Origin: a virus
Taxonomy: Duplodnaviria; Caudoviricetes
Direction: 5' to 3' (one strand)
DNA: 64,000 nucleotides
IMG/VR virus record: IMGVR_UViG_3300025382_000004
Coordinates: 24,865-88,864 of that record
Positions 2,047-28,590 of this stretch are shown here, one piece after another; positions within the stretch are counted from its first letter, which is position 1; each line of letters opens with the position of its first letter. The position numbers were made by a program, and so were the translations under genes. Under the pieces are notes generated by a model, which saw nothing but the letters and a program-made list of their open reading frames with translations, searched no databases and was not told the DNA's origin.

Positions 2047-3141
2047 ATGAAAAGTTTTAAGTCATTTATTAGTGAGGAAGTCCTTCCAACCGCAAATGTG
2101 GAGAATGGCAACTTTGACCTAGAGAACGACGCAGTTCGTGCCGAGGTTAATGCCATTCTTGCTGGCATCTGTAGTCATTCACATGTTACACCTTACATTA
2201 CATTGCGTAAGATTTCTAAGGCCCTTGCTTACTTTAGCATTATCCTTCCAAAGAGAACATTTTTGGAAGGTGATAAAGGTGTTGAGGTCTATGAAATTAG
2301 ACAGTTTGGCGAACGTATGGGTATGACCGATCAAGGTGAGTTTGTTCGTGAAATTCCTGTCCAGTATCATCTATTCTTCCAGTATGTCCAGGTTATGGGC
2401 CGCTTTATCGTTACCGCTAAGGTTGTTGATAAAGCAGAATTGGATAAGATGCTTGATACAGCCGAAATGGTAATGAAAGAATGTTGGGACAAGGTTACAA
2501 AGAGCGAACGAGAGGCCATCAAAGAACCAATCCACACCGATGGTAACAATGGTACAGTAAGCACCAAGAAGGCCATGGATACATCTGAAAGAACAAAAGA
2601 TAAGAAACTTGCTTCTGGTAAGTTAGATAAAGAATGGCCTGCCGTTGTCAAGGAAGATGAACAGATTGATGAAGGTAAAACCGACGGTTCAAAGATGAGC
2701 GATATGGATAAGCATCGTCATGGTTATGCCATGATGTATGGTCGTTCACCAACTCAGATGAAACCAAATGACAAACTTGCTTCTAAAGTTTGGAACAAAC
2801 CATCATCTGAAATGAGAAAGACCAAATCTGGTAAGATTCACGGTCAAGACCAGAAAGCCAAGGCATCTGAAATTAAGTCCCGTCTCGGTTCACATACAAA
2901 ACCAGGTCATCTACCAGAAGATAACCTTGATGAGGCTGATTATAAGTCTTCGTATGCTTACAAGAAGATGAAAACAAAAGTTGCCACAAAGGTTAAACGT
3001 GGACTTGGTATTGGTAAAGAAAAGACCTCTACTGTCCTTGTAACAAACAAAGGTGATCCAAAGGCTGCTACAGGTGGTGGAGTTCATCGTATTCCAAAAG
3101 ATAAATACGATCCATCAAAGCATAACTTGGCATCAGAATAA
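2047..3141 (+). CDS. conserved T4-like N-terminal domain plus Lys-rich modules; possible internal head protein
   Basis: MKSFKSFISEE start; acidic linkers VKEDEQIDE and LPEDNLDE between basic segments. Confidence 0.55.
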   Translation: MKSFKSFISEEVLPTANVENGNFDLENDAVRAEVNAILAGICSHSHVTPYITLRKISKALAYFSIILPKRTFLEGDKGVEVYEIRQFGERMGMTDQGEFVREIPVQYHLFFQYVQVMGRFIVTAKVVDKAELDKMLDTAEMVMKECWDKVTKSEREAIKEPIHTDGNNGTVSTKKAMDTSERTKDKKLASGKLDKEWPAVVKEDEQIDEGKTDGSKMSDMDKHRHGYAMMYGRSPTQMKPNDKLASKVWNKPSSEMRKTKSGKIHGQDQKAKASEIKSRLGSHTKPGHLPEDNLDEADYKSSYAYKKMKTKVATKVKRGLGIGKEKTSTVLVTNKGDPKAATGGGVHRIPKDKYDPSKHNLASE

Positions 3142-3209
3142 CTAAATAAGAGTGCGGGCCACGGTGCTGTAACACCTGCCCGCTCTAACACTCGGTAAGG
3201 AGTATCAGC
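3142..3209 (+). promoter_or_regulatory. late promoter CTAAATA plus two-hairpin structured leader, copy A
   Basis: GCGGGC-CAC-GGTG-loop-CACC-T-GCCCGC-TCTAA, then ACTC/GAGT hairpin over the SD, then CAGC-ATG; homologous to copies B and C. Confidence 0.85.
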
Positions 3210-3764
3210 ATGTATTATATATATGCTTACATAAGGCAGTATGATTCTAAAACTGCTAAAGCAGGAACACCTTATTATATTGGTAAGGGTAAAAAATATA
3301 GACTAAAAAATAAGAAAAAAGGTCATAATATACCTATACCAAAAGATAAAAAATTTATTGTAATTATGGAATCCGATTTGACAGAGATTGGTGCATTTGC
3401 TCTTGAAAGATTTTATATTCGTTGGTATGGGCGTAAAGATTTAGAAACTGGAATTTTATTGAATAGAACTGATGGTGGTGAAGGTGTTTCTGGATATAAA
3501 GCAACAGAAAAATCAAAGCAAATCAGGCGCGAAAGATTATTAGGTAGTAAAAGAACAAAACAAACTATTAACAATATGATTGAGGGTATATCAAAAAATT
3601 GGTTGATAACTTTTCCTGATGGACATAAAGAAATGATAAAAAATATGGCAAAATTTTGTAGAGAACATAATTTGTCAAAATCACTTATGCACTTGACATC
3701 CGTAGGAAACAGGCCACATCATAAAGGATACTCGGCGATTAGATATGATACAAGACCTAAATGA
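3210..3764 (+). CDS. GIY-YIG homing endonuclease, copy 2
   Basis: YIYAY...PYYIGKG; [13 protein letters not shown]; C-terminal N..FC..H.L...HKGY. Confidence 0.9.
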
Positions 3765-4137
3765 TGAAAATTTCCTACTTTATGCGGCTAAGGCCTACGA
3801 CAAGCCACATATCCTACAATCGGAGTTTGAGGACGATCTAAAGAGAATAAAGTATGTAAAAAGGTTATTGCGAAAGTATAGACAAACTGGTGAGTTCAAG
3901 GAGAGATTGGTTCTAAACCATGTTATCGTCCTTGCTAATGTGTTTGGTGTTGAAGCAACCGTGAATATGCTATTCTTCAAGGTGGATCCTGAAGATTATC
4001 CACTCCTCAAAACTATTCTTATATTTCTTAACTATTTACCTAAAAGATTGACTGTCTCGTTTAATAAATACTATGTGAGACAAGAAGAAATACCAGTCAA
4101 TCTGGAAATAGCACATGTATTAAGGAATCTACAATGA
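3745..4137 (+). CDS. conserved hypothetical protein of T4-like phages
   Basis: [11 protein letters not shown]...[16 protein letters not shown]...ERLVLNH pattern. Confidence 0.75.
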
Positions 4138-4550
4138 AACTAAAAGAAGACGGTGTAGGTGTAGGCGCGCCGACCAACAATGCAGGTGGTGGTTCCGTAG
4201 CAGGTATCGGTGTAGGCCCTAAGGGCGAGCCAGGTATGCCTGTAAGTTCGCAGAAGAAACGATACGGTAAGACCAAGTCACCTTTGCTATTTCCTGATAT
4301 GATGAAACGCACAGTACCAAGTTTGGTTAAAGAAGAAACATTCGCAGGCGCAGCAGTCTTTGAGGTTTCTTCACATGTGTTTCATAACCTTACTATGCAG
4401 AAACGCAAGGGTAAGCATTGGAGAATTTATTTGGAAGAAGATGATAGTTATATGGAAATAAGAGAGTGGGCCAAAAAAAATAAAGGTCCTATTATAGTTA
4501 GAAATGCTACAACTTCTGAAATGCGTTATGTGAGGTATGGGAAAGGATAA
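4134..4550 (+). CDS. hypothetical late protein
   Basis: ATGA overlap with the previous gene; LKE and VKEE motifs. Confidence 0.65.
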   Translation: MKLKEDGVGVGAPTNNAGGGSVAGIGVGPKGEPGMPVSSQKKRYGKTKSPLLFPDMMKRTVPSLVKEETFAGAAVFEVSSHVFHNLTMQKRKGKHWRIYLEEDDSYMEIREWAKKNKGPIIVRNATTSEMRYVRYGKG

Positions 4551-4564
4551 AAGGAAATACAATT

Positions 4565-5092
4565 ATGACCTCGACACCAACAAACGAAAAGTGTAAAGAA
4601 CTTTTTCCACACGAAGACGTTCTAAACCTAAATAAATTCTTCGGTGATCCATCTGGTAAAAACGGAGATGTGGATCCGACTTGGTTTAAAGAGAACATTG
4701 TAAAGTGGGAACCACCTTATCCTATGTTCTTTAATGCCAGTGGCCAGCAGTTCAAAACAATGAAACTACACAAGAAGGTAGTTGATGTTTATACTGCCGC
4801 ATTTACTGAGGTGTTAGAACACTTTGGTAAAGATAATATTAAGAAGTTACACCTCGATCAGTCTGGTGGTTCATTTAACTACAGACTAATGCGCGGTGGT
4901 TCTAGATTATCAGTCCATTCATGGGGTATAGCCATTGATATGGACCCAGCAAGAAATCCTTGGCCATCTGCATGGCATGAAGGTATGCTGAACCACGAGT
5001 TTGCAGATATACTAGAGAAGCACGGATTGTGGTGGCGCGGTAGGCCCGGCGATAACGACCCGATGCATTTTCAGGCTGCTTGGAGATACTAA
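4565..5092 (+). CDS. M15-family zinc peptidase, probable endolysin
   Basis: R...SxHSWGIAID and DPMHFQ zinc-ligand motifs. Confidence 0.85.
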   Translation: MTSTPTNEKCKELFPHEDVLNLNKFFGDPSGKNGDVDPTWFKENIVKWEPPYPMFFNASGQQFKTMKLHKKVVDVYTAAFTEVLEHFGKDNIKKLHLDQSGGSFNYRLMRGGSRLSVHSWGIAIDMDPARNPWPSAWHEGMLNHEFADILEKHGLWWRGRPGDNDPMHFQAAWRY

Positions 5093-5093
5093 T

Positions 5094-5125
5094 TCGTCGC
5101 CCCGGTCCTGTGAGGGCGACGATTT
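5094..5125 (+). terminator. GC-rich hairpin with short T tail
   Basis: TCGTCGCCC / GGGCGACGA 9-bp stem followed by TTT. Confidence 0.45.
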
Positions 5126-5161
5126 ATAGGATGGAGGTTTAACAGGAGAGAGAAACCTAAA

Positions 5162-5506
5162 ATGTTAAAACACGACCACAACCATAACGACGAGATTGGC
5201 GATGATGGAGGTGGATTCAATCTTATCAATTTTTTACCACACGCTATTACAGCTATAATTGCCGTGTGTGGTATTGGTGTATCACTATTATGGACCATTA
5301 GTGACCTTAAAGTGGGAGATATGGAACTTAAAACAAAAGTGACCTATCTTGAGTCCAGAGTCCAACATATTGAAGATTACCTTGGTCAAAGAAAAGAATT
5401 GACTGATAATGACCGTAAAAGTCTTTGGGACGAGGTAAATGATATAAAGCAGTCCTTACAAAATATAGAACAACAACATAAAAGGGAACTGCCACCAAGA
5501 AAGTAG
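5162..5506 (+). CDS. single-TM coiled-coil protein, candidate holin/spanin-like lysis accessory
   Basis: Hydrophobic AITAIIAVCGIGVSLLW followed by a heptad-rich tail; adjacent to the endolysin. Confidence 0.5.
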   Translation: MLKHDHNHNDEIGDDGGGFNLINFLPHAITAIIAVCGIGVSLLWTISDLKVGDMELKTKVTYLESRVQHIEDYLGQRKELTDNDRKSLWDEVNDIKQSLQNIEQQHKRELPPRK

Positions 5507-5535
5507 TTGACATAGAGCCAACTACCAAGTATAAT
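5507..5535 (+). promoter_or_regulatory. sigma70-type promoter
   Basis: TTGACA-17-TATAAT upstream of the primase. Confidence 0.85.
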
Positions 5536-5564
5536 AAAAAACTTCGTTATGATTATGGTGGAAT

Positions 5565-6581
5565 ATGTCCTTATACATAGATAAAAAATATGTTTCCCTC
5601 CTTTCGCCCAAGTTGAAAAACTTCAAGCAAAGGGGGGAATTTTTATGGAATTTTTCCTGTCCCGTTTGTGGTGATTCCAAGAAGGACAAACTAAAGGCCC
5701 GTGGTTACATCTATAAGAAGAAGGAACACCTCTTCTTTATGTGTCATAATTGTCACACCTCCACCACATTTCAAAAGTTCCTAAAAGATGAAGATCCGAT
5801 GTTATATCGTGATTTTGTATTGGACTCGTTCGTCCAACCTAACACGACCAACACCGTTGTGGACGTCAAGGATTTTGTCTCCAAACCAGTCTTTAAAGAA
5901 CAACCTAAGTCCCTACTATACAGTGATGCCGTTCGTGTCAATGGACTGAATCCTTATCATCCGGCTAGAAAATACCTAGAAGATAGGAAGGTTCCTATTG
6001 ATGATATGTGGTATGCGGAAGACTTCGCAAACTTCGTTTCTGTCACATTTCCTGCACACGCAAAAACACTATATAAGGAACCTCGCATAATAATCCCGTT
6101 CTATAACAGAGACGGCCAACTACTGGGAATACAGGGGCGATCCATTGACAGACATTCCAAGATCAAGTATATCACAATCAAAAGTGACGAAGAGAACCCA
6201 AAAGTTTTTGGTTGGGATAAACTTAACTTTGATATGCCTGTATATGTTGTTGAGGGACCCATCGACAGTCTTTTCCTTAACAATTCTCTGGCTACTATGG
6301 ATGCAGCACTGTTTAATGCTCCTAACATTGTAGGTCTTGACAAAGATTACAGATTTGTGTATGATAATGAACCACGAAACAAACAGATTGTTTCTAATAT
6401 GCGGAAAACCATTGACTTGGGTTATAAGATTTGTATCTGGCCCAACACTGTGAAAGAAAAAGATATTAATGAAATGGTTCTTTCAGGATTATCTCCTGCC
6501 ATTCTCCAACACATTATAGATATAAACACACACAGCGGATTTGAGGCTACGATGAACTTGAATATATGGAGTAGATTATGA
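5565..6581 (+). CDS. 61: DNA primase (T4 gp61-like)
   Basis: CPVCGDS...CHNC zinc finger; TOPRIM VEGPIDS and DNEPRN. Confidence 0.95.
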   Translation: MSLYIDKKYVSLLSPKLKNFKQRGEFLWNFSCPVCGDSKKDKLKARGYIYKKKEHLFFMCHNCHTSTTFQKFLKDEDPMLYRDFVLDSFVQPNTTNTVVDVKDFVSKPVFKEQPKSLLYSDAVRVNGLNPYHPARKYLEDRKVPIDDMWYAEDFANFVSVTFPAHAKTLYKEPRIIIPFYNRDGQLLGIQGRSIDRHSKIKYITIKSDEENPKVFGWDKLNFDMPVYVVEGPIDSLFLNNSLATMDAALFNAPNIVGLDKDYRFVYDNEPRNKQIVSNMRKTIDLGYKICIWPNTVKEKDINEMVLSGLSPAILQHIIDINTHSGFEATMNLNIWSRL

Positions 6582-6787
6582 GTATGTTAAAATTTACTAA
6601 TATGAATAATCAAAGAGCAGGTGATCCACTTTATATTAATTCAGATTGGGTTGTTGCTATATATGAAAATCATAATGAAGGTGGATCATTATCAACAGTT
6701 ATATTTGGTGGACCACATAACACTGAATGGTATGTAGAAGAAAGTCTTGGTCAAGTTATTAAGATTATTAATGAGGAAACAAAATGA
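6578..6787 (+). CDS. small protein resembling the FlbD/SwrD family
   Basis: MLKFT...LYIN.D.V..I.E...TVI...V.ES..QV.K.I pattern. Confidence 0.45.
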   Translation: MSMLKFTNMNNQRAGDPLYINSDWVVAIYENHNEGGSLSTVIFGGPHNTEWYVEESLGQVIKIINEETK

Positions 6788-7521
6788 ATACCGCGAAAAT
6801 TATAGCATTGACACAACCTATCCTTTCGGCATGGGAAACACAAACAGAAAGATCCATTGGCGTAGAGGCATTCATTGCTTACACAGCCAGAGTATCAAAT
6901 CCATCCAATCAACATAACACACTAACCGCACCTAAACTTCTCAAATATCTAATCAAAAACAAGCACTGGTCTCCATTTGAGATGGTGTCTATCACTATGG
7001 ATATTCAGACAACCCGTGACATTTCACATCAGATCATTCGTCATCGTTCTTTTTCATTCCAAGAGTTTAGTCAACGTTATGCTGATCCAACCAAGGACAT
7101 GGAGTTTGTAACAAGAGAAGCAAGACTACAAGACGCCAAGAATCGTCAGAATAGTATTGAGACGGATGATGAAGATTTAACTGATGTTTGGGAGAAAAAG
7201 CAGAAATCATTAACTAATCTTGCTGGAATTTATTATAAAGAAGCGATTGAAATGGGTATTGCTAAAGAACAGGCTAGATCGGTTCTACCAGAAGGTCTAA
7301 CCAAGACACGACTATATATGTCAGGTACACTTCGTTCTTGGATTCACTGGATAGATGTTCGTGCGGAAGTAGGCACACAGAAAGAACATCGTTTGATTGC
7401 TCTTGATGCACAGAAAGAAATACTACAACATTTCCCGTCATTGAGAGAGTATTGGCATCCTGCACCAATACAGATGGAGAATCCAGACGCTAAAGAAAAA
7501 CCTTGGTGGCCATTTTGGTGA
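6784..7521 (+). CDS. thyX: flavin-dependent thymidylate synthase
   Basis: RHRSFSFQEFSQRY signature; HWSPFE; ARVSNP. Confidence 0.97.
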   Translation: MNTAKIIALTQPILSAWETQTERSIGVEAFIAYTARVSNPSNQHNTLTAPKLLKYLIKNKHWSPFEMVSITMDIQTTRDISHQIIRHRSFSFQEFSQRYADPTKDMEFVTREARLQDAKNRQNSIETDDEDLTDVWEKKQKSLTNLAGIYYKEAIEMGIAKEQARSVLPEGLTKTRLYMSGTLRSWIHWIDVRAEVGTQKEHRLIALDAQKEILQHFPSLREYWHPAPIQMENPDAKEKPWWPFW

Positions 7522-7587
7522 AAAGTAATGAGTGAACCTAACTTTATAAAATGGGGTCACGGAAAAAATTGTAAGAGGAAATAAAGA

Positions 7588-9483
7588 ATGGATTTATACA
7601 GCCAATTCATATATAAGAGTCGTTATAGTCGTTATCTGCCAAAACAAAATCGTCGTGAAAACTGGGAAGAAACTATAAATCGTTATCTTGACTTTATGGA
7701 AAATCATCTCCAAGAAAAGCATCAATACGATATAAAGCCTATTCGTTCTCGTTTGTTTGATGCTATTCACGATCTAAAAGTTATGCCAAGTATGCGATCA
7801 CTAATGACTGCTGGCAAGGCTTTGGAACGTGACAACACCTGCGGATACAACTGCTCATTCTTGCCTGTAGATGATCCAAAAGCATTTGATGAAGCAATGT
7901 TTGTCCTCTTGTGTGGAACAGGCGTAGGTTTTTCGGTAGAGAGACAATTCATCAATCAGTTGCCAGAAATTCCGGAAAAACTATTTGACTCGGAGACTAC
8001 CATTTCCGTTAGAGATAGTAAGGAAGGTTGGGCCAAGGCACTTCGTATGCTTATTGCTCTACTTTATACTGGAGAGATTCCAAAGTGGGACTTGACAAAA
8101 GTTCGTCCCGCTGGTGCTCCGCTAAAAACATTTGGTGGTCGTAGTTCCGGACCCGAACCATTACATGAACTATTCAGATTTGTTGTAAAAACATTTCGTA
8201 ACGCCCATGGCCGCCGTCTGACATCATTAGAGTGTCACGATATTCTATGTAAAATAGGCGAGGTAGTGGTTGTTGGTGGTGTTCGTCGTTCTGCTATGAT
8301 TAGTTTGTCTAACCTTAGCGATGATAGAATGAGACATTGTAAATCAGGAAGTTGGTGGGAAGCAAATCCACAACGAGCATTGTCAAACAACTCTGCCGTG
8401 TATAATGAGAAGCCAGAAGTTGGCACATTCATGGCAGAATGGATTTCATTGTATGAAAGTAAATCAGGTGAGAGAGGACTATTCAGCCGTGAAGCATGTC
8501 AAACAATCGCAAAACGAAATGGCAGAAGAAATAGTGAACAACTATTTGGCACAAACCCATGTAGCGAAATTATCCTTCGCCCATATGGATTCTGCAATCT
8601 TACGGAAGTTGTTATCCGAGCCGATGACACCATGGAAACTATTCGTGATAAAATTGAGGTTGCGACTATTCTTGGTACTTTTCAATCTACTCTTACGGAT
8701 TTTCCCTACCTAAGAAAGATTTGGGTTAAGAATGCCGAAGAAGAAAGACTACTTGGTGTTTCTCTTACAGGCATCTATGACTCCAAACTATTCAACAATC
8801 CACAAGATAAAGAAATCAAGGCACGCCTTGCTTCTCTCCGTGACTATGCTGTTGAGGTGAATAATGGACTTGCTGAAAAACTTGGTATTAATCCTGCCGC
8901 TGCTATTACTTGTGTCAAGCCTTCTGGCACAGTATCGCAACTATGCGACTCCGCGTCTGGTATTCATCCACGGCATTCTAATTATTATATCCGTCGTGTT
9001 CGGGCTGATAATAAAGATCCTCTAACAAAGTTTATGAAAGAGAAGGGTGTGCCTTGGGAACCAGATGTGATGAAGCCTGATTCCACAACTGTATTTTCTT
9101 TCCCACAGAAAGCACCAAAGGGTGCCGTGGTTCGTGATGACATTGATGCTATCAAACATTTGGAGTTGTGGGCGGTGTATCAGGAACACTTCACGGAACA
9201 TAAGCCATCAGTTACGATTACTGTTCGTGAGGATGAATGGATGAAAGTTGGTGCCTGGGTTTACGACCACTTTGATGAAATGTCCGGCGTCTCGTTCTTG
9301 CCTTATGATGGTGGTAGCTACCGGCAAGCACCTTATGAGGCCATAACCAAAGACCTTTACGATGCTATGTTACCTTCCATTCCAACCGAAATAAACTGGG
9401 ATGAACTCAAAGAGTTTGAGGATAATGTGGAGGGGGTGCAGACCTTGGCCTGTAGTGCGGCAGGCGGTGGATGCGACATCTAA
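7588..9483 (+). CDS. nrdJ: class II (adenosylcobalamin-dependent) ribonucleotide reductase, monomeric type
   Basis: YNCSF, TNPCSEI and TCVKPSGT motifs; C-terminal C..GGGC; no nrdB in the window. Confidence 0.92.
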
Positions 9484-10211
9484 TGTTTTGATAGTTTGGC
9501 CTTGGATATAGCCTTACCAACTCTAAGGTTATATTCGGGGTCAGACCATCTTACTTTGTTTCTATAAGACGCAGCGCAGGACTTATTACAGAAATGTGCG
9601 GCCTTTCTATTATTGGCGGTATCTCTTTCTGTATGTTCTTTACCACAATGCTTACAATGCCAGGTGAATGTAGAAAGTATTTTGTTATAAGGTTCTAATC
9701 CTGGCGTTCCTTTGTTATAACGACCTTTTAGTTTTTCGGAAACTTTTTTGGCAATCTCCGGATCCTTCATGGGATTGTTAGTAAGGAATCTTTCACGCTG
9801 TTGTGGATTAGAAATACCTTTGTTAGGAGCAGGACGACCAAGTGCCTTTTGTCTTATCTTTTCTCTTGTTTCAGGAGAATGTATTCCAGTTTTTCCTTTA
9901 TTAGGATGCTGAAAACCAGATTGTCCGTTTCCACCATCAGACAGATTGCGGAGAATACCAGTACCATTGTCTTTGCGACCATACCATCTAATGTAGAATC
10001 GTTCTAAGGCAAAAGCACCAAGTTCTGTTAGATTGGCCTCCATAATAATGATTTTGCTATGGTCTTTTGGTGGTTGAGCATTACATTGTCTATGACGGCG
10101 CCAGGCACGATTACTTTTGCCTTTACCAATGTAATAGACATTACCATTCTTGGAAATATATGCGTAAATATAGAACTCTGGTGGTAGATTTGTGGTAGAA
10201 TAAATAGCCAT
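9480..10211 (-). CDS. GIY-YIG homing endonuclease, copy 3, with NUMOD-like repeats and a C-terminal Cys cluster
   Basis: YIYAY...YYIGKG; [13 protein letters not shown]; HSPETREKI; CKHC...FCNKSC. Confidence 0.9.
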
Positions 10212-10278
10212 GCTGATACCTCCGTATAAGGTGTTAGAGTAGGCAGGTTCCCCAACCGTGGCCTACAACCCTATTTAG
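10212..10278 (-). promoter_or_regulatory. late promoter CTAAATA plus two-hairpin structured leader, copy B
   Basis: Minus strand reads GTAGGC-CAC-GGTT-GGGG-AACC-T-GCCTAC-TCTAAC, ACCTT/GAGGT, CAGC-ATG. Confidence 0.85.
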
Positions 10279-10297
10279 TAAACATGAAAGTTAATAT

Positions 10298-10759
10298 ATG
10301 AGAAAACTACTAATAGCATTATTACTAATATCAACACCAGCAATGGCACTTGACCCTTTGCTGCCAAACCACCAACTAACACCAGGCGCAACTCTTCCTG
10401 TTACAGAGAAAGAGGTCTGCGTTCCTGGTTATGCTGGTCGTGTTAGAAATGTTCCACAGTTTGTGAAGAACAAAGCATACCAGATTTATGGTATTACATC
10501 TCGCAAACCCGGTCAGTATGAGATAGACCACCTAATCAGTTTACAGTTAGGTGGATCAAATGATCTTAGCAATCTTTGGCCACAGTCATACGTGACACTA
10601 CCGTGGAATGCCCATGTGAAAGATAAACTTGAGAATAAACTACATGCCTTGGTGTGTAGTGGTCAGATGACCTTGAAAGAAGCACAGGAGAAGATTTCAG
10701 GAGACTGGACTAAAGCTTACTGTGAAGTTTTTGGTATTACCAACTGTAATGGAGACTAA
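10298..10759 (+). CDS. signal-peptide-bearing HNH-like nuclease
   Basis: MRKLLIALLLISTPAMA signal; EIDHLISLQLGGSNDLSNLWP HNH-like core. Confidence 0.7.
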   Translation: MRKLLIALLLISTPAMALDPLLPNHQLTPGATLPVTEKEVCVPGYAGRVRNVPQFVKNKAYQIYGITSRKPGQYEIDHLISLQLGGSNDLSNLWPQSYVTLPWNAHVKDKLENKLHALVCSGQMTLKEAQEKISGDWTKAYCEVFGITNCNGD

Positions 10760-10760
10760 T

Positions 10761-11162
10761 GTGAAGAAATTACTTATCGCAATGATGCTACTAACAACAC
10801 CAGCAATGTCACAGACTGATATCACTATCAGTAAGAGACACCAGATGATGCAGGTTGATACGGACTCAGGTTCATACCAGTTTCCAGTATCAACAGCCCG
10901 TAAAGGTTATTATACACCAACAGGAACTTTTCATCCTTATTCACTACAACCAATGCACTACTCAAGGAAATATGATATGGCACCTATGCCTCACTCCATC
11001 TTTTTTAGTGGCGGTTATGCTATCCATGCTACTCCACATACTGGTGCTTTGGGGCGTCCTGCTTCTCATGGTTGCGTTCGTCTATCACCTGCTAACGCTG
11101 CGTTTCTTTATGGGATTGTGAAGAATGATAAAGAAGGTACGACGATCAGGATCACAAACTGA
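10761..11162 (+). CDS. exported L,D-transpeptidase (YkuD family)
   Basis: GTG start after GGAG; signal peptide; AIHAT...LGRPASHGCVRL catalytic motif. Confidence 0.88.
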   Translation: MKKLLIAMMLLTTPAMSQTDITISKRHQMMQVDTDSGSYQFPVSTARKGYYTPTGTFHPYSLQPMHYSRKYDMAPMPHSIFFSGGYAIHATPHTGALGRPASHGCVRLSPANAAFLYGIVKNDKEGTTIRITN

Positions 11163-11424
11163 TGAATTAAACTTGATTTTGGCCGAACAATTGCAATCGG
11201 CAAAACTAAGTTTAAAAACAATAAATAGATTTTTAAAACTTATGCCAAATGATCCATGGTTACTACAAGGTAAAAAAATAGTAGAAAAAAGAATTAGTTG
11301 GTATGAAAGTATGATAACAGAACCTTCTTACAAAAGAAAGAGGGTAATAAATATAAGAAGAACATTGACCAACATAAAATATTATGTAAGGTTCATACAC
11401 TTCTTCAGAAAGAGGAAAAACTAA
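11125..11424 (+). CDS. hypothetical basic protein (start uncertain)
   Basis: ORF fills the gap and is TAATG-coupled to the next gene. Confidence 0.45.
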   Translation: MIKKVRRSGSQTDELNLILAEQLQSAKLSLKTINRFLKLMPNDPWLLQGKKIVEKRISWYESMITEPSYKRKRVINIRRTLTNIKYYVRFIHFFRKRKN

Positions 11425-11645
11425 TGGCTTGGAATACAGGTTCTCAAATACTAGATCAGATTATAGAAAAACTGGTTGATAGCGAAGTTTCATATGATGA
11501 TCGTAAAATCGTTTATGAAATCTTGCTAGAGGTCTTTGAGGACTTTGATGCTAAGAACTTAGACGAATGTGTTGAAATGGATAAGGCCTTCGATGAGGTA
11601 TGGAACGAAAAGTATCCACCTGAGATGGAAGACGAAGAGGACTGA
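11424..11645 (+). CDS. small acidic hypothetical protein
   Basis: ORF with SD; D/E-rich. Confidence 0.65.
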   Translation: MAWNTGSQILDQIIEKLVDSEVSYDDRKIVYEILLEVFEDFDAKNLDECVEMDKAFDEVWNEKYPPEMEDEED

Positions 11646-11660
11646 CACCTACATAGGTGT

Positions 11661-12053
11661 ATGTGGTTATACAACAATACACCTTTTGAAGAAATACCCG
11701 ATGGTTATGTGGCCTTTGTTTACCTTATCACCAACGAGGTAACAGGTCGTAAGTATATCGGAAAGAAACTGTTTAAATTCACCCGCTCTACCAAACGAAA
11801 AGGTAAGCGGGTGAAAAAACAGGTTGACTCCGACTGGAAAGACTATTATGGTTCTAACAAAGAACTAAATGAGCATGTGGATCTATACGGCAAAGACAAG
11901 TTCAAACGAGAAATCCTATATCTTTGTAAGTCTAAAGGTGAGGCTTCATACCTTGAGGCCAAGGAGCAGTTTGCTAGAGACGCATTGATGACCGAAGATT
12001 ACTATAATACATGGATTATGGTACGAGTAAGGAAATCTCATATAAAGAGATGA
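11661..12053 (+). CDS. GIY-YIG nuclease, endonuclease II-like
   Basis: FVYLITN...KYIGKK...DWKDYYGS...Y.E; a different subfamily from the four paralogues. Confidence 0.75.
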   Translation: MWLYNNTPFEEIPDGYVAFVYLITNEVTGRKYIGKKLFKFTRSTKRKGKRVKKQVDSDWKDYYGSNKELNEHVDLYGKDKFKREILYLCKSKGEASYLEAKEQFARDALMTEDYYNTWIMVRVRKSHIKR

Positions 12054-12057
12054 TAAA

Positions 12058-12648
12058 ATGATCTTTGAAAATGTTTTTTGTAATTTTTTAGCCTATGAAG
12101 ATATCATTATTGATAATAATGATATTGAAAATTTTTGTTATCGAAAAATGAATGAAGATGAAAAAGGTCGTGTATTAACCAATAAAGGTGGATGGCAAAG
12201 TAATGATCTTTTTTTGCCGGTTTCGGAATTGTGTGAATTAACAAGTATTGTTACTTACAATATGAGAAAACTGGCCAAAAAAATTAATCTTAAAAATGTC
12301 CATGATTTGTATTTATCTAATTTTTGGATAAATATAAATAAAAATTCTAACTCTAATTCACCTCACACCCATCCTAATTCTGTATTAACTGCTGTATATT
12401 ATGTTAAAGTTCCTTATAAATCTGGTGATATAAGATTTTTTAGTCCTATTGAAAATAATCATGATTATTTCAAAGATTTTATGATAGAAAATTATAATGA
12501 ATATAACTCGACAACTTATACATTAAAACCATCACAAGGAAAATTAGTATTTTTTCCTTCTTGGTTGAAACACGAAGTTGAAAGCAATGAAACAAATATG
12601 GATAGAATAAGTATAGCATTTAATTCAAATTATAAGGATTTATTATGA
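12058..12648 (+). CDS. 2-oxoglutarate/Fe(II) oxygenase
   Basis: PHTH...VYYV...FPSWLKHEV...RISIAFN. Confidence 0.85.
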   Translation: MIFENVFCNFLAYEDIIIDNNDIENFCYRKMNEDEKGRVLTNKGGWQSNDLFLPVSELCELTSIVTYNMRKLAKKINLKNVHDLYLSNFWININKNSNSNSPHTHPNSVLTAVYYVKVPYKSGDIRFFSPIENNHDYFKDFMIENYNEYNSTTYTLKPSQGKLVFFPSWLKHEVESNETNMDRISIAFNSNYKDLL

Positions 12649-13259
12649 AAGAACCAGAAGATCATATACCAGCATATTGTAAATATGACTATGTTGAAAA
12701 TTTTGTTGTTACCAAAGAGTTTCTAACAAAACAAGAGTGTGATGTATTTGTAAGAGATGCAAAAGAACTTAATCTTTATGATGCGGAAGTGGAAGTAAAG
12801 AAAGGTCCTGTCAAAACATCAGATTTGGTATCGGAAGTCAGAGATAGTAAAATACATTTCATTAACTATGACAATACAAAGTTTGATTGGTTCTTTCAAA
12901 AGATCCTACAAACATTGGTGAATATTAATACAGACTATTTTGATTTTGATATTCTTGGATTTCAGGAAGACTTACAGTTTACAGAATACAATGCTCCTTG
13001 TGGCCATTATGCAGATCACACCGACAAACTCCTACAAGGCAATGTTCGAAAACTAACAATGGTTGTCCAATTAACCGATCCTGAAGAATATGAAGGTGGT
13101 GAATTGGAACTATGTTTAGGCGGTGAACCATTTGTGGTACCAAAAGAACAGGGAACATTGGTAACATTTCCATCATACAATCTACATAGAGTAAGACCGA
13201 CAACAAAAGGCACTCGCCATAGTTTGGTTGGTTGGGTAACAGGGAGACCATTTAGATGA
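12645..13259 (+). CDS. 2OG-Fe(II) oxygenase, prolyl-4-hydroxylase-like
   Basis: HTD...RKLT...EYEGGEL...HRV.P...G.R.SLVGW. Confidence 0.9.
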   Translation: MKEPEDHIPAYCKYDYVENFVVTKEFLTKQECDVFVRDAKELNLYDAEVEVKKGPVKTSDLVSEVRDSKIHFINYDNTKFDWFFQKILQTLVNINTDYFDFDILGFQEDLQFTEYNAPCGHYADHTDKLLQGNVRKLTMVVQLTDPEEYEGGELELCLGGEPFVVPKEQGTLVTFPSYNLHRVRPTTKGTRHSLVGWVTGRPFR

Positions 13260-13483
13260 ACGTTATAATGTATTCAAAAGATGACTGTGCCTTTTGTGAT
13301 AAGGCCAAAAACTTGTTAAAGATGAAGGCAATTGAGTTTATTGAGTATAAACTTGGTAAGGACTTTGACCGTGATACCCTTTTGGAACAGTTCCCAGAGG
13401 CACGAACATTTCCTGTAATAACACTTAATAAAGAATATATCGGTGGTTTTAATGAACTTGAAAAGTTGCTGAATACTAAATAA
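13256..13483 (+). CDS. nrdC: glutaredoxin
   Basis: CAFC active site; TFPVI; YIGGF.EL. Confidence 0.92.
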   Translation: MNVIMYSKDDCAFCDKAKNLLKMKAIEFIEYKLGKDFDRDTLLEQFPEARTFPVITLNKEYIGGFNELEKLLNTK

Positions 13484-13539
13484 GTGTGTAGGCCACGGAT
13501 TGGCGTCCTGCCTACTCTAATGCTTTAGGGAGCACCAGC
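13476..13539 (+). promoter_or_regulatory. late promoter CTAAATA plus two-hairpin structured leader, copy C
   Basis: GTAGGC-CAC-GGA-TTGGCG-TCC-T-GCCTAC-TCTAA, TGCTT/GAGCA, CAGC-ATG. Confidence 0.85.
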
Positions 13540-14148
13540 ATGTCTATTTATCCTACCGGTTTCTACATTTACGCCTATCTACGCAAATCCAACTTAACAC
13601 CTTACTATATTGGAAAAGGTAAAGGTGAAAGAGCGTGGAATAGCAAAAGTCATACAAAAAACAATAATGCAAGGACTCCTAAAGACAAAAGATATATTGT
13701 TATTATGGAATCCAATCTAACGGAACTTGGCGCTTTTGCTTTAGAAAGATTTTATATTCGTTGGTATGGCCGTAAAGATATCGGAACAGGTATATTGAGA
13801 AACCTGACTTATGGTGGTGATGGAGCAGAAGGTTATATTTTCACCAAGGAACAACTTGAGAAAAGAGGAAAAAATATCTCTTCGTCAAAAAAAGGAAAAC
13901 CCCTTACGAGAAAAGCATTGGAATCAAAGAAAAAATACTTTTATGAAGTTGTCTGTTCCGATGGTAATATAGTTAATACAGATAACTTACAACAGTTTTG
14001 TAGAGATAATAAACTGGATATGTCAGCCTTATCCAGAACCGTGAATAAAGAAAGAAAACAACACAAAGGATTCTATGTGAAGAAAAGACTTGACAAAAAG
14101 TATATTGGCGGTTATAATGAGTTGTATGATTTGCTACTAACTCACTAA
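13540..14148 (+). CDS. GIY-YIG homing endonuclease, copy 4; last 19 codons resemble the glutaredoxin C-terminus
   Basis: YIYAY...PYYIGKG; [13 protein letters not shown]; ends [19 protein letters not shown]. Confidence 0.9.
14090..14118 (+). promoter_or_regulatory. sigma70-type promoter embedded in coding sequence
   Basis: TTGACA-17-TATAAT. Confidence 0.8.
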
Positions 14149-28095: not shown

Positions 28096-28165
28096 AGGTT
28101 CCGTAGACCATCGTGGTGTTTCGGCGCCACAGATGGAAGAGTTTGAGAACCAAGTAGAATAATAC

Positions 28166-28198
28166 TTGACATTCCCAAAAAATACTCTATAATAAATA
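28166..28198 (+). promoter_or_regulatory. sigma70 promoter overlapping a late-promoter-like ATAAATA
   Basis: TTGACA-16-TATAAT, then AAATA. Confidence 0.75.
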
Positions 28199-28200
28199 GT

Positions 28201-28440
28201 ATGCTTAGGTCGTTGAGAACGGTAGAATAAGCAGGCAGGACCTGGGAGCGTTACCCAGCCGGTCCACCAAAGGACATTAAGGTGTCTTTTGGGGGCCGGA
28301 AGTAGGATCGACTGATGTGGTAAAGGCCGAAGGAGACCAAAAGCAATCGTAAATGCTAACGATAATTCAGCATATCAGGATCTTGCTCTAGCAGCATAGT
28401 CCTACGGGCCGCCGGCAGCCTCGGAACAGAATGCCGGCAC
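28201..28440 (+). ncRNA. ssrA: circularly permuted two-piece tmRNA (alphaproteobacterial type); outer ends approximate
   Basis: Acceptor piece ends T-arm CTGGG-AGCGTTA-CCCAG-CCGGTCC-A-CCA (28269); intervening hairpin; coding piece starts GGGCCGG (28293) with G3:U70; tag ANDNSAYQDLALAA* at 28355-28399. Confidence 0.93.
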
Positions 28441-28458
28441 CTCACAAAGGACACTAAA

Positions 28459-28590
28459 ATGAAAACAAAAAAGTTGATTTTAAAGTTCTATCGTGCTATA
28501 CTGAATAAAGATGCTAAGAAGGAGAGGAAGTTTTGGTTTAAACTCCTCAAGAAATCTTTCAAAGGCAAAAACACTCACGCAATCCGATAG
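28459..28590 (+). CDS. 43-aa Lys-rich protein
   Basis: Read manually; AAGGA SD. Confidence 0.5.
   Translation: MKTKKLILKFYRAILNKDAKKERKFWFKLLKKSFKGKNTHAIR

Follow-up and report, generated by a model that had tools for sequence, protein, structure and literature searches.

Fold selection on a short element that heads endonuclease genes in a T4-like phage contig acts mainly on the antisense strand, opposite the gene. We read the element, as the best account of the data, as a portable expression-control cassette of ~85–90 bp at the head of free-standing homing-endonuclease genes in phages with gp55 (T4-type) late transcription. Judged from sequence, it is somewhat probable that convergent late promoters in the cassette yield a nuclease mRNA and a ~65–75-nt cis-antisense RNA over the ribosome site, as in IS10 RNA-OUT or symE/SymR.

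The stretch analyzed (the window) comprises 64,000 nucleotides. A preliminary description had placed in it three copies of an element that runs from CTAAATA through an outer stem (6 bp), CAC facing T, an inner stem (4 bp), TCTAA and a short hairpin covering GGAG to CAGC-ATG; all three are present at the coordinates given, with this anatomy (Table 1). Read in the direction of the gene, (N/C)TAAATA, a late promoter, is followed by a spacer of 5 (or 3) nt, helix P1, one U, helix P2 (CUAA through the Shine-Dalgarno (SD) region to UCAG), C-AUG, and codons 2–4 as NNU AUU UAU. Helix P1 opens with a 6-bp stem and continues with one R:Y pair set between two bulged Cs, then a 4–5-bp stem and a variable loop. 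TAAATA was found in 154 of 166 leaders, spaced 5 nt from the stem in 95 and 3 nt in 43. The proposed linkage of a late promoter to the element is borne out by CTAAATA at -12 to -6, a documented Aeh1-type variant that starts at -12 (PMC1524935), and the T4 spacing rule puts the late start at the first base of the first hairpin, so that both hairpins lie on the late mRNA, as had been supposed. Late-promoter motifs also stand ahead of large late-region ORFs in the window, and gp55 homologues were present in every near-complete cassette-bearing genome tested. Loop and linker bases earlier taken for a fixed, single-stranded binding site proved to be paired. CAC opposite T is a base pair between two one-base bulges, and the UCUAA linker and CAGC spacer pair with each other (A.C in the sense reading, G.U in the antisense), their "fixed" bases forming the base of the antisense helix. 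The window ORFs downstream of the copies are GIY-YIG-like by motif but only weakly so in profile searches, where E was 0.005 with Pfam and 0.004 for a PDB profile match to GIY-YIG domain proteins.

Table 1. Features of the three cassette copies in the window (transcripts and their +1 positions are predictions).
Feature	Position	Strand	Evidence or remarks
Copy 1 forward late promoter CTAAATA (-12..-6)	3142..3148	+	Sequence; predicted mRNA +1 at 3154
Copy 1 helix P1	3154..3183	.	6-bp outer stem, bulged C, A-U pair, bulged C, 4-bp inner stem; folds, covariation, R:Y statistics; on the antisense strand the U-rich tail comes next
Copy 1 helix P2, C2 of UCUAA to G of CAGC	3185..3208	.	9 bp on antisense, 4-bp core only on sense
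Copy 1 SD GGAG	3199-3202		
Copy 1 GIY-YIG-like (seg-like) endonuclease ORF, 184 aa, start MYYIY	3210..3764	+	
Copy 1 antisense fold: 5' hairpin with CUCC in loop, one A, 3' hairpin, tail	3142..3209	-	-30.2 kcal/mol, z -4.59, 0/200 shuffles as stable
Copy 2 forward late promoter CTAAATA	10272..10278	-	Predicted mRNA +1 at 10266
Copy 2 helices P1 (10266-10239) and P2 (10237-10213)	10213..10266	.	SD GGAG at 10223-10220
Copy 2 GIY-YIG-like endonuclease ORF, 243 aa (MAIY...)	9480..10211	-	Inverted, between nrdA and next gene
Copy 2 reverse (inward-facing) late-promoter motif AATAAATA, inside codons 2-4	10199..10206	+	Predicted antisense +1 at 10212
Copy 2 predicted cis-antisense RNA, 67 nt	10212..10278	+	-22.3 kcal/mol, z -2.99; clean two-hairpin fold and tail
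Copy 3 forward late promoter CTAAATA, overlapping glutaredoxin stop codon	13476..13482	+	Predicted mRNA +1 at 13488
Copy 3 helices P1 (13488-13515) and P2 (13517-13538)	13488..13538	.	SD GGAG at 13529-13532
Copy 3 GIY-YIG-like endonuclease ORF, 202 aa (MSIY...)	13540..14148	+	
Copy 3 reverse late-promoter motif GATAAATA, inside codons 2-5	13545..13552	-	Predicted antisense +1 at 13539
Copy 3 predicted cis-antisense RNA, 64 nt	13476..13539	-	-20.6 kcal/mol, z -2.34

The core pattern occurred three times in the window versus never in 100 shuffles, and a covariance model built from the copies recovered only these three in a window search at E≤1. The earlier remark that the element was not seen elsewhere is correct for the window but not for the 88.9-kb contig, which carries three further copies outside it (G000:C1:3350, 10368 and 19011) and six in total. 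Two complete jumbo phages hold 9 and 13 copies. A scan that used just the 3' part hit more than 119 loci, and the whole leader was present in 100 of 100 loci checked. Homology between copies starts at the promoter, and the leader is better conserved than the coding sequence; thus, the cassette travels as a portable unit with the nuclease gene, as first suggested. Specificity for GIY-YIG genes did not hold up: in uncultured phages the cassette occurs with hundreds of nuclease genes that are unrelated to one another. The 170 distinct leaders from IMG/VR precede GIY-YIG subfamilies, HNH_3, Vsr/REase-like and TnsA-like nucleases, and nuclease-less ORFs with NUMOD3 only. No Rfam family matched the cassette even at E≤10, and blastn against cultured-phage records gave no match. 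Cyanophages S-SRM01 and ACG-2014f have homologous GIY-YIG genes without the cassette.

Compensatory changes, the original ground for proposing a selected structure, were confirmed on far larger data. Double changes affected 14 of 14 pairs of the sense structure, with 94.7% of cells paired versus 28–47% in slid controls. For the antisense structure, scored on an unfitted MAFFT alignment of 65 distinct sequences, they affected 16 of 18 pairs, with 97.0% of cells paired versus 30–47% in slid controls and 0 of 500 shuffles. The preliminary description had not considered the antisense strand as the selected fold. Over the same columns, standard pairs filled 97.0% of cells on the antisense strand versus 86.2% on the sense strand. 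Mismatches fell to one side: on the sense strand A.C was frequent and G.U nearly missing, and every helix therefore pairs better on the antisense strand. Sense-strand cell counts, which overstate the number of independent events because cassette sequences are related and probably exchanging by recombination, were A.C 24 versus G.U 1 in the outer stem (16 versus 2 by distinct stems); G-C 105, A.C 39, A-U 22 and G.U 0 at the R:Y position; and, at the base of P2, A4.C in 138/138 and, for N5:N', A-U 106, A.C 42, U-A 10, G-C 5 and G.U 0. RNAalifold, applied to one 96-sequence alignment, gave -20.4 kcal/mol for the antisense and -13.5 kcal/mol for the sense reading, and both helices were predicted by the antisense reading only. 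Predicted antisense transcripts of this contig folded cleanly, with z from -4.6 to -2.3, versus -2.3 to -0.85 for the sense versions.

Codons 2–4 (NNT ATT TAT) read ATAAATA on the antisense strand, a second late-promoter motif that faces inward. It sits exactly 5 nt ahead of the G that opens antisense P2, mirroring the forward promoter and P1. The third base of codon 2 was T in 38/38 cases versus a background of 52%, ATT-TAT followed in 34/38 versus ~30% expected, and the TATTTAT codon bias is conserved at synonymous sites in unrelated protein families alike. Spacing from the motif to GCTG was 5 nt in 27 of 65 unbiased leaders and was kept even with a shifted start codon; TATTTAT was also kept in 5 of 7 leaders devoid of the forward promoter. 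Counting against an antisense RNA, exact reverse ATAAATA is absent from 23 of the 65 unbiased leaders and likewise from window copy 1, where the ORF start MYYIY accounts for its absence; no canonical promoter was found for the copy 1 antisense fold, the minus strand of the ORF lacking NNTAAATA. The forward and reverse promoters are both late-class, an arrangement with no obvious temporal logic that we also count against this reading, and the reading does not account for the two conserved bulges. Because it necessarily complements the forward promoter, the U-rich tail of the predicted antisense RNA is not independent evidence; in the window it is a poor U-tract (ACUCUUAUUUAG), and a simple terminator scan did not call the antisense hairpin and tail.

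Unlikely is a leader that works on the sense strand only, the model of the preliminary description, in which 5'-terminal P1 of the late mRNA stabilizes the message or binds protein at the bulged C-R-C, and a short hairpin partly hides the SD and attenuates nuclease translation. In its favor, the forward +1 coincides with the start of P1 wherever the spacing is 5 nt, as in all three window copies; every copy has predicted sense hairpins, the P2 core takes in the 3' half of the SD, and the two bulges are strictly conserved among leaders. A selected sense helix, however, should tolerate G.U and not A.C, and the reverse was seen, by ~80:1 at the P2 base and 39:0 at the R:Y position. In the 3-nt spacing class (43/166) a late start would cost P1 2 bp. 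Predicted accessibility of the SD and AUG is moderate and equal in read-through and late transcripts, and nucleotide-level conservation of TATTTAT across unrelated proteins is left without explanation.

We regard a temporal mask of the I-TevI/mobE type as very unlikely. Here, AUAAAUA of read-through RNA would pair with codons 2–4 (UAUUUAU) or with the AU-rich SD loop, closing the leader and blocking initiation on early and middle transcripts, while late transcripts, starting past the promoter, would escape. An exact 7-nt inverted repeat does lie on both sides of the leader, the paradigm is known from T-even phages (PMC2988022), codons 3–4 have a predicted accessibility of 0.65 in late versus 0.46–0.50 in read-through transcripts, and in two copies the MFE structure joins promoter RNA to the SD loop. 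Yet the AU-only helix is weak, with 1.5–2 long-range pairs expected and more than 3 in only 22–26% of leaders, and the pairing is essentially absent from the window copies. SD/AUG accessibility does not differ between transcript types, TATTTAT outlasts the forward promoter as described above, and the antisense-biased wobble pattern is not explained.

There is likewise only a slim chance that the antisense fold is real but non-regulatory, P1 and the U-rich tract serving as an orientation-specific terminator or insulator that stops stray antisense or convergent transcription from entering the upstream essential gene, or the fold forming in single-stranded DNA of that strand during replication or recombination. 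Such roles would share the strand asymmetry and the order of hairpin then U-rich tail, and inner hairpins found in both orientations show that the DNA hairpin arises in vivo, if only as an intermediate of mutation. Antisense-specific pairing of P2 exactly at the predicted antisense 5' end would be needless for a mere terminator, and contig genes are almost all co-oriented, leaving little antisense transcription to insulate against. A riboswitch, ribozyme or autoregulatory operator bound by the cognate nuclease is exceedingly improbable: conserved bulged nucleotides and the known autorepressor I-TevI, which acts at the DNA level (PMC2988022), speak for it, but one leader heads at least three unrelated nuclease superfamilies and nuclease-less ORFs, which makes the operator proposed earlier unlikely, terminal loops are variable and some even inverted, ~4 conserved bases are left unpaired once pairing is counted, and neither the Rfam search nor any other result supported the ligand-responsive switch once envisaged.

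The cassette resembles the hairpins of T-even phages and Aeh1 (I-TevI, I-TevII, I-TevIII, segB and mobE; PMC2988022) in placing RNA structure and a late promoter immediately ahead of a homing-endonuclease gene of a T4-like phage, with a partly paired SD and, presumably, the common purpose of limiting nuclease expression. In those phages the late promoter lies inside the hairpin and late transcripts lose the inhibitory arm (PMC2988022), whereas in the cassette it precedes both helices and modeled SD accessibility is equal early and late. The antisense-selected fold, the second, inward late promoter in codons 2–4, and the sharing of one conserved unit by unrelated nuclease families further set the cassette apart. 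Probably the same element are the conserved hairpins with TATAAATA that Dassa et al. (2009) described 5' of free-standing GIY-YIG and Vsr-like endonucleases in "fractured genes" of ocean and lake metagenomes (PMC2677866). They occupy environmental T4-like loci (gp41, nrdA, nrdJ and others) and 15/16 endonuclease 5' UTRs, 10 with a late promoter, carry two conserved motifs complementary on the stem, and in one case lack an endonuclease (PMC2677866). Its main text, in the portions consulted, reads them as sense-strand translational hairpins of the mobE type, in contrast to the antisense reading here, and contains none of the covariation analysis, strand asymmetry, reverse promoter or second helix (PMC2677866).

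Among antisense systems, IS10/Tn10 RNA-IN/RNA-OUT (PMC5006887) shares convergent promoters at the 5' end of a selfish gene, a ~70-nt stem-loop antisense RNA (here predicted) whose 5' part complements the translation-initiation region, and copy-number-dependent inhibition in trans, which the cassette would have in common with it. IS10 has a bacterial transposase gene, sigma-70 promoters and a single long hairpin in RNA-OUT (PMC5006887); the cassette has phage late promoters, a predicted two-hairpin RNA and homing-element nuclease genes. In the type I toxin-antitoxin pair symE/SymR (PMC3874152), a nuclease-like toxin gene likewise has a reverse promoter within its 5' end that yields an antisense RNA, in the cassette a prediction, over the SD, but the pair is a chromosomal SOS-regulated locus without a conserved portable cassette common to unrelated toxins (PMC3874152). 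In cyanophage S-PM2, an antisense RNA over a homing-endonuclease gene of a T4-like phage, CfrI, was detected experimentally (Millard et al. 2010, as summarized in PMC2984593). According to that summary CfrI is ~225 nt long and links the endonuclease gene to psbA (PMC2984593); similarity to the cassette in sequence or structure is not expected.

In the convergent-promoter reading, the forward late promoter would produce nuclease mRNA with P1 as its 5' end, and the reverse late promoter a ~65–75-nt cis-antisense RNA that begins with a hairpin bearing anti-SD CUCC in the loop and continues through a second, 3' hairpin into a U-rich tail. This RNA would pair with the first ~52 nt of the mRNA, ribosome-binding site included, and so hold nuclease translation low. 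Transcriptional interference from the convergent promoters may contribute, and paralogous cassettes within one genome may cross-regulate one another.

The observation made in the preliminary description is confirmed and its interpretation is borne out in part. The three reported cassettes are present in the window, and their alignment, about 70 nt long, shows 81-83% column identity. The window has three occurrences of their core pattern, 100 shuffles have none, and R1, a covariance model of the leader built from these copies, recovers them as its sole matches there. The count of three holds within the window; the whole 88.9-kb IMG/VR viral contig, of which the window spans bases 24865-88864 and which is judged 53% complete, carries six copies. 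The genomic setting is a T4-like replication module with uvsX-like, gp41, primase, nrdA, glutaredoxin and 2OG-Fe oxygenase genes. Five of the six contig copies head seg-like GIY-YIG ORFs with a conserved N-terminal domain of ~100 aa and differing C-termini. In the window-copy ORFs the GIY-YIG motifs YIYAY and YYIGKGK are visible along with downstream conserved R, E and N. Pfam GIY-YIG was matched by one copy only, below the cut-off (E=0.005), a PDB profile search gave E=0.004 to GIY-YIG domain proteins, and cultured phages have homologues annotated as Seg-like or intron endonucleases. The ORF behind the sixth copy (MDIY...) has NUMOD-like repeats and a C-terminal zinc finger and lacks the GIY-YIG catalytic domain, being either a decayed nuclease or a DNA-binding-only derivative. 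Between copies, leader identity is 59-82% versus 49-68% for the first 300 nt of the gene, and similarity ends at the promoter. At window positions 3142 and 13476 and at position 1487 of the related locus L001, the upstream gene's stop codon overlaps or adjoins the forward promoter: its TAA falls inside CTAAATA-A or just ahead of it, so the cassette is inserted flush with the preceding ORF.

Coordinates of cassettes, reverse promoter motifs and other features (window positions unless stated)
Feature	Position	Strand	Remarks
Cassette copy 1	3142-3209	+	predicted late mRNA start 3154
Cassette copy 2	10212-10278	-	predicted late mRNA start 10266
Cassette copy 3	13476-13539	+	predicted late mRNA start 13488
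Reverse motif, copy 2	10199-10206	+	AATAAATA
Reverse motif, copy 3	13552-13545	-	GATAAATA
Sixth cassette copy	contig 10368-10957 (G000:C1) = L215:1501-2090		without forward TAAATA promoter; heads 174-aa ORF
Possible solo cassette	related locus L272:1150-1262	-	followed only by 11-codon ORF
Glutaredoxin C-terminal end	13424-13483	+	last 19 residues
Endonuclease copy 3 C-terminal end	14089-14148	+	12/19 residues identical to glutaredoxin
Sigma-70 promoter	14090-14118		TTGACA-17-TATAAT, perfect
Sigma-70 promoter	5507-5535	+	12/12 matches
Sigma-70 promoter	6337-6365	+	11/12 matches
Sigma-70 promoter	3693-3722	+	10/12 matches; in 3' end of endonuclease copy 1
Permuted tmRNA gene	28162-28490	+	Rfam alpha_tmRNA 89 bits, tmRNA_permuted 84 bits

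Other features of the window were recorded alongside the cassettes. The C-terminal residues shared between glutaredoxin and endonuclease copy 3 place the copy 3 nuclease cassette within a duplicated or recoded glutaredoxin 3' end, and the sigma-70 promoter in the downstream copy of that end presumably serves the next gene. The remaining perfect or near-perfect sigma-70 promoters are probably early promoters. T4 seg genes embed promoters for downstream genes, with which the one in endonuclease copy 1 may be compared. The permuted tmRNA gene is of alphaproteobacterial type, with the ARAGORN-predicted tag peptide ANDNSAYQDLALAA, and hints at an alphaproteobacterial host.

Beyond the contig, a protein-seeded IMG/VR scan returned more than 573 nuclease relatives, and the leader is found with most of the best 80. 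Scanning for only its 3' part (CTCTAA...CAGCATGNNTATTTAT) yielded at least 119 loci, and the full two-helix leader was present in 100 of the 100 searched. These protein-seeded loci and the 3'-part scan replaced an IMG/VR scan with the core pattern GGCCACGG..CCTGCC, which had retrieved 120 mostly unrelated stretches. In total, 170 distinct leaders were collected. R2, a further covariance model of the leader, finds 9 and 13 copies in the complete genomes of two jumbo phages (329 and 361 kb) and a single one in a 165-kb genome. Against 50,697 cultured-phage records, megablast with 12 kb of the window and blastn with a typical leader gave no match. Among cultured phages a single, diverged copy was found, in the unverified record of Pseudoalteromonas phage vB_Psh_XG4, and cyanophages S-SRM01 and ACG-2014f have nuclease homologues without the cassette. 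Homologues of gp55, the late sigma factor, occur in all four other cassette-bearing genomes tested; none was found on the window's own 53%-complete contig. The preliminary description had proposed a check against Rfam, including COG3860-type motifs. At gathering thresholds Rfam 15 had no hit to the three copies, and at E<=10 it had none on window 3000-14000, both strands; no curated family was matched, the COG3860-type motifs included.

The element had been described as a companion of GIY-YIG genes, a claim that fails on this larger sample. ORFs behind the collected leaders fall into at least eight N-terminal families, comprising several GIY-YIG subfamilies, HNH_3 (Pfam 6e-11), a second HNH type, Vsr/REase_MTES_1575-like and DUF7487/TnsA-like ORFs, and NUMOD3/I-TevI-DNA-binding ORFs without a nuclease domain. 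Families were defined by N-terminal clustering; whole-protein single-linkage had merged them all via shared NUMOD-type modules. Several other cassettes likewise head nuclease-less ORFs similar to that of the sixth copy, a few leaders precede frameshifted nuclease genes (four short ORFs), and one precedes nothing recognisable. The cassette at L272, followed by no recognisable nuclease remnant, may be a solo cassette. The variety of these ORFs identifies a portable cassette, a general head-piece of free-standing homing endonucleases rather than a GIY-YIG companion.

Leader anatomy was counted in 166 parsed leaders. TAAATA is present in 154, as NATAAATA or CTAAATA, and is spaced from the 6-bp stem by 5 nt in 95 leaders and 3 nt in 43. 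The T4 late promoter spans -13 to -6, and its Aeh1 variant CTAAATA begins at -12 (PMC1524935). A T4-type late promoter would thus be expected as TATAAATA or CTAAATA at -13/-12 to -6 in a gp55-encoding phage. By this positional rule, late mRNA is predicted from the sequence to start at the first base of P1 in all window copies, which agrees with the earlier placement of the promoter upstream of both helices. The 5' bulge of P1 reads CGC in 105 leaders and CAC in 60, opposite C in 144 and U in 22, and the linker UCUAA is found in 140.

The structure proposed for the sense strand has good support, with double changes in 14 of 14 pairs and 94.7% pairing versus 28-47% in slid controls; its non-Watson-Crick exceptions, however, are one-sided. 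In the outer stem they are A.C 24 and G.U 1 by cells, or 16 and 2 by distinct stems. The middle base of the supposed CAC/T loop and its opposite pyrimidine form G-C in 105 leaders, A.C in 39, A-U in 22 and G.U in none. Such counts make this middle base part of a base pair between two single-base bulges. Linker and spacer bases previously regarded as fixed in fact pair with each other (C2-G, U3-A, then A4.C and N5:N'), with A4 of UCUAA facing C of UCAG as A.C in 138 of 138 cases and the next pair inward, N5:N', being A-U in 106, A.C in 42, U-A in 10, G-C in 5 and G.U in 0.

Each sense A.C is a G.U on the antisense strand. From the base of P2, positions 1-8 are canonical in 100, 100, 100, 99, 98, 85, 84 and 85% of leaders in the antisense reading, versus 99, 100, 0, 74, 66, 83, 81 and 95% in sense. 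In an unfitted MAFFT alignment of 65 distinct sequences, an antisense structure of 18 pairs has 97.0% of cells paired and double changes in 16 pairs. None of 500 shuffles reached this value, slid controls gave 30-47%, and the sense reading of the same columns is 86.2% paired. For one 96-sequence alignment, RNAalifold yields -13.5 kcal/mol and P1 only for sense, and -20.4 kcal/mol with both helices and the R:Y pair for antisense. Five of the six contig antisense transcripts have one clean predicted fold (-30.2 to -20.6 kcal/mol, z -4.6 to -2.3), namely one G, an 8-9-bp hairpin with CUCC in a 6-7-nt loop, one A, a bulged hairpin and a 12-nt U-rich tail. Sense versions of contig copies give z of -2.3, -1.6 and -0.85. 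Thus, the antisense strand has its own selected, stable fold. We consider a sense-only stabiliser or operator unlikely, as it is at odds with both the A.C/G.U pattern and the 3-nt spacing class.

Among related loci (e.g. L150/L154/L162 versus L164/L239/L251), the inner P1 hairpin is found either way round. Three exact inner-hairpin sequences coexist with their reverse complements, GGAACGCCAATTCC and GGAATTGGCGTTCC being one such pair, and the P1 loop classes C..AA (44) and UU..G (31) mirror each other. Given these flip-flop inversions, the loop sequence itself is probably not read. Two candidate motifs were discarded by inspection: a kink-turn at the CAC/T loop, where tandem G.A pairs are lacking and the middle base is paired to the Y across from it, and a pseudoknot between the P1 loop and CAGC, where loops vary and invert.

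Codons 2-4 of the nuclease genes hold a second promoter motif, pointing inward. Among 65 leaders forming an unbiased subset, recovered via proteins or via a model ending at ATG, the ORFs mostly start M-x-I-Y whatever their protein family. The final base of codon 2 is T in 38/38 (background 52%) and codons 3-4 are ATT TAT in 34/38, with about 30% expected from codon usage. These bases, conserved at synonymous sites, spell TATTTAT, which is ATAAATA on the antisense strand, so that this inward-facing late-promoter motif is under selection at the nucleotide level. Antisense ATAAATA is present in two of three window copies, five of six contig copies and 42 of the 65 unbiased leaders; copy 1, which starts MYYIY, has no reverse motif, and the exact motif is absent in a third of leaders. 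On the antisense strand the motif precedes the G of GCUG by 5 nt in 27 of 65 leaders and by 4-9 nt in 15 more, a geometry relative to P2 that matches that of the forward promoter to P1. Where the start codon has moved 9 nt upstream, as in some variants, the CAGC-N5-TATTTAT spacing is kept, and leaders without a forward promoter mostly retain TATTTAT.

The conserved codons could instead belong to a mask of the I-TevI type, in which RNA of the promoter pairs with codons 2-4. In the T-even paradigm the late promoter lies inside a hairpin that sequesters the ribosome-binding site (PMC2988022), and late transcripts of I-TevI and mobE lack the inhibitory arm; in the cassette, by contrast, the promoter precedes both helices. 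Such a mask is thermodynamically weak, with modelled long-range pairing averaging 1.5-2 bp, and predicted accessibility of the Shine-Dalgarno (SD) and AUG is the same on read-through and late transcripts. In the models only the 3' half of GGAG falls in the 4-5-bp sense core, and the SD has a mean unpaired probability of 0.41-0.47. We regard a mask as improbable.

We give about an even chance to the reading that the cassette is an undescribed phage small-RNA gene family encoding a late cis-antisense RNA of ~65-75 nt that serves as a portable brake on nucleases. The gp55 promoter of this RNA would be written into nuclease codons 2-4, and its terminator, formed by antisense P1 and the complement of the forward promoter, would overlap the nuclease promoter. 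The two late promoters would converge, one giving the nuclease mRNA and the other a 65-75-nt antisense RNA able to pair with the first ~52 nt of that mRNA, GGAG among them. Such pairing would block ribosome binding or trigger decay, contact of complementary P2 loops perhaps starts it, and convergent transcription may add interference. Any homing endonuclease, whether GIY-YIG, HNH or Vsr-like, could acquire the brake through recombination, in the manner of a type I toxin-antitoxin pair or IS10. A genome has 6-13 paralogous copies with loop and helix-base sequences in common, so the RNAs may work in trans too, in which case nuclease output would depend on phage genome copy number. Against the antisense reading, an exact reverse motif is missing from a third of leaders and from copy 1, both promoters are late and the two conserved bulges have no explanation in it. 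Downstream of antisense P1 the commonest class has ACUUUUAUUUAU and the window copies have ACUCUUAUUUAG or AACCCUAUUUAG, a poor U-tract; a simple terminator scan missed the antisense hairpins on account of the bulged stem. Neither a terminator acting solely in the antisense direction nor a structure in single-stranded DNA has any need of P2, and we hold this alternative to be of low probability. A riboswitch or autoregulation by the nuclease is scarcely credible: loops are variable and invertible, and the downstream proteins are unrelated, on which ground autoregulation was rejected.

The proposed antisense RNA would resemble RNA-OUT of IS10 (PMC5006887) and SymR, whose reverse promoter lies within symE (PMC3874152). 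In cyanophage S-PM2, an antisense transcript covering a homing-endonuclease gene has been found (PMC2984593). Dassa et al. 2009, in the text available, report conserved hairpins, often with TATAAATA, before GIY-YIG/Vsr-like free-standing endonucleases in metagenomic fractured genes and read them as mobE-like sense hairpins (PMC2677866). Judged by this description, they are probably the same element as the cassette. That portion of the text contains no two-helix covariation model, strand asymmetry or codon 2-4 reverse promoter, nor the spread over three nuclease superfamilies and jumbo phages (PMC2677866).

Our verdict is that the cassette belongs with cis-antisense or leader control of selfish nuclease genes. 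It would add to RNA catalogues a widespread, strongly covarying RNA absent from Rfam, and it serves as an annotation marker for homing-endonuclease genes and their decayed remnants. It also offers a clean natural case in which G.U/A.C asymmetry reveals which strand of a structured element is functional. Among the selfish genes of large phages, homing endonucleases are the most common, and they shape the exchange of genome segments. To our knowledge, how they stay harmless to their carrier is understood for a few T-even cases only. If unrelated nuclease families share one portable cassette, this would account for their common Met-x-Ile-Tyr start and would explain how newcomers are instantly tamed in gp55 phages.
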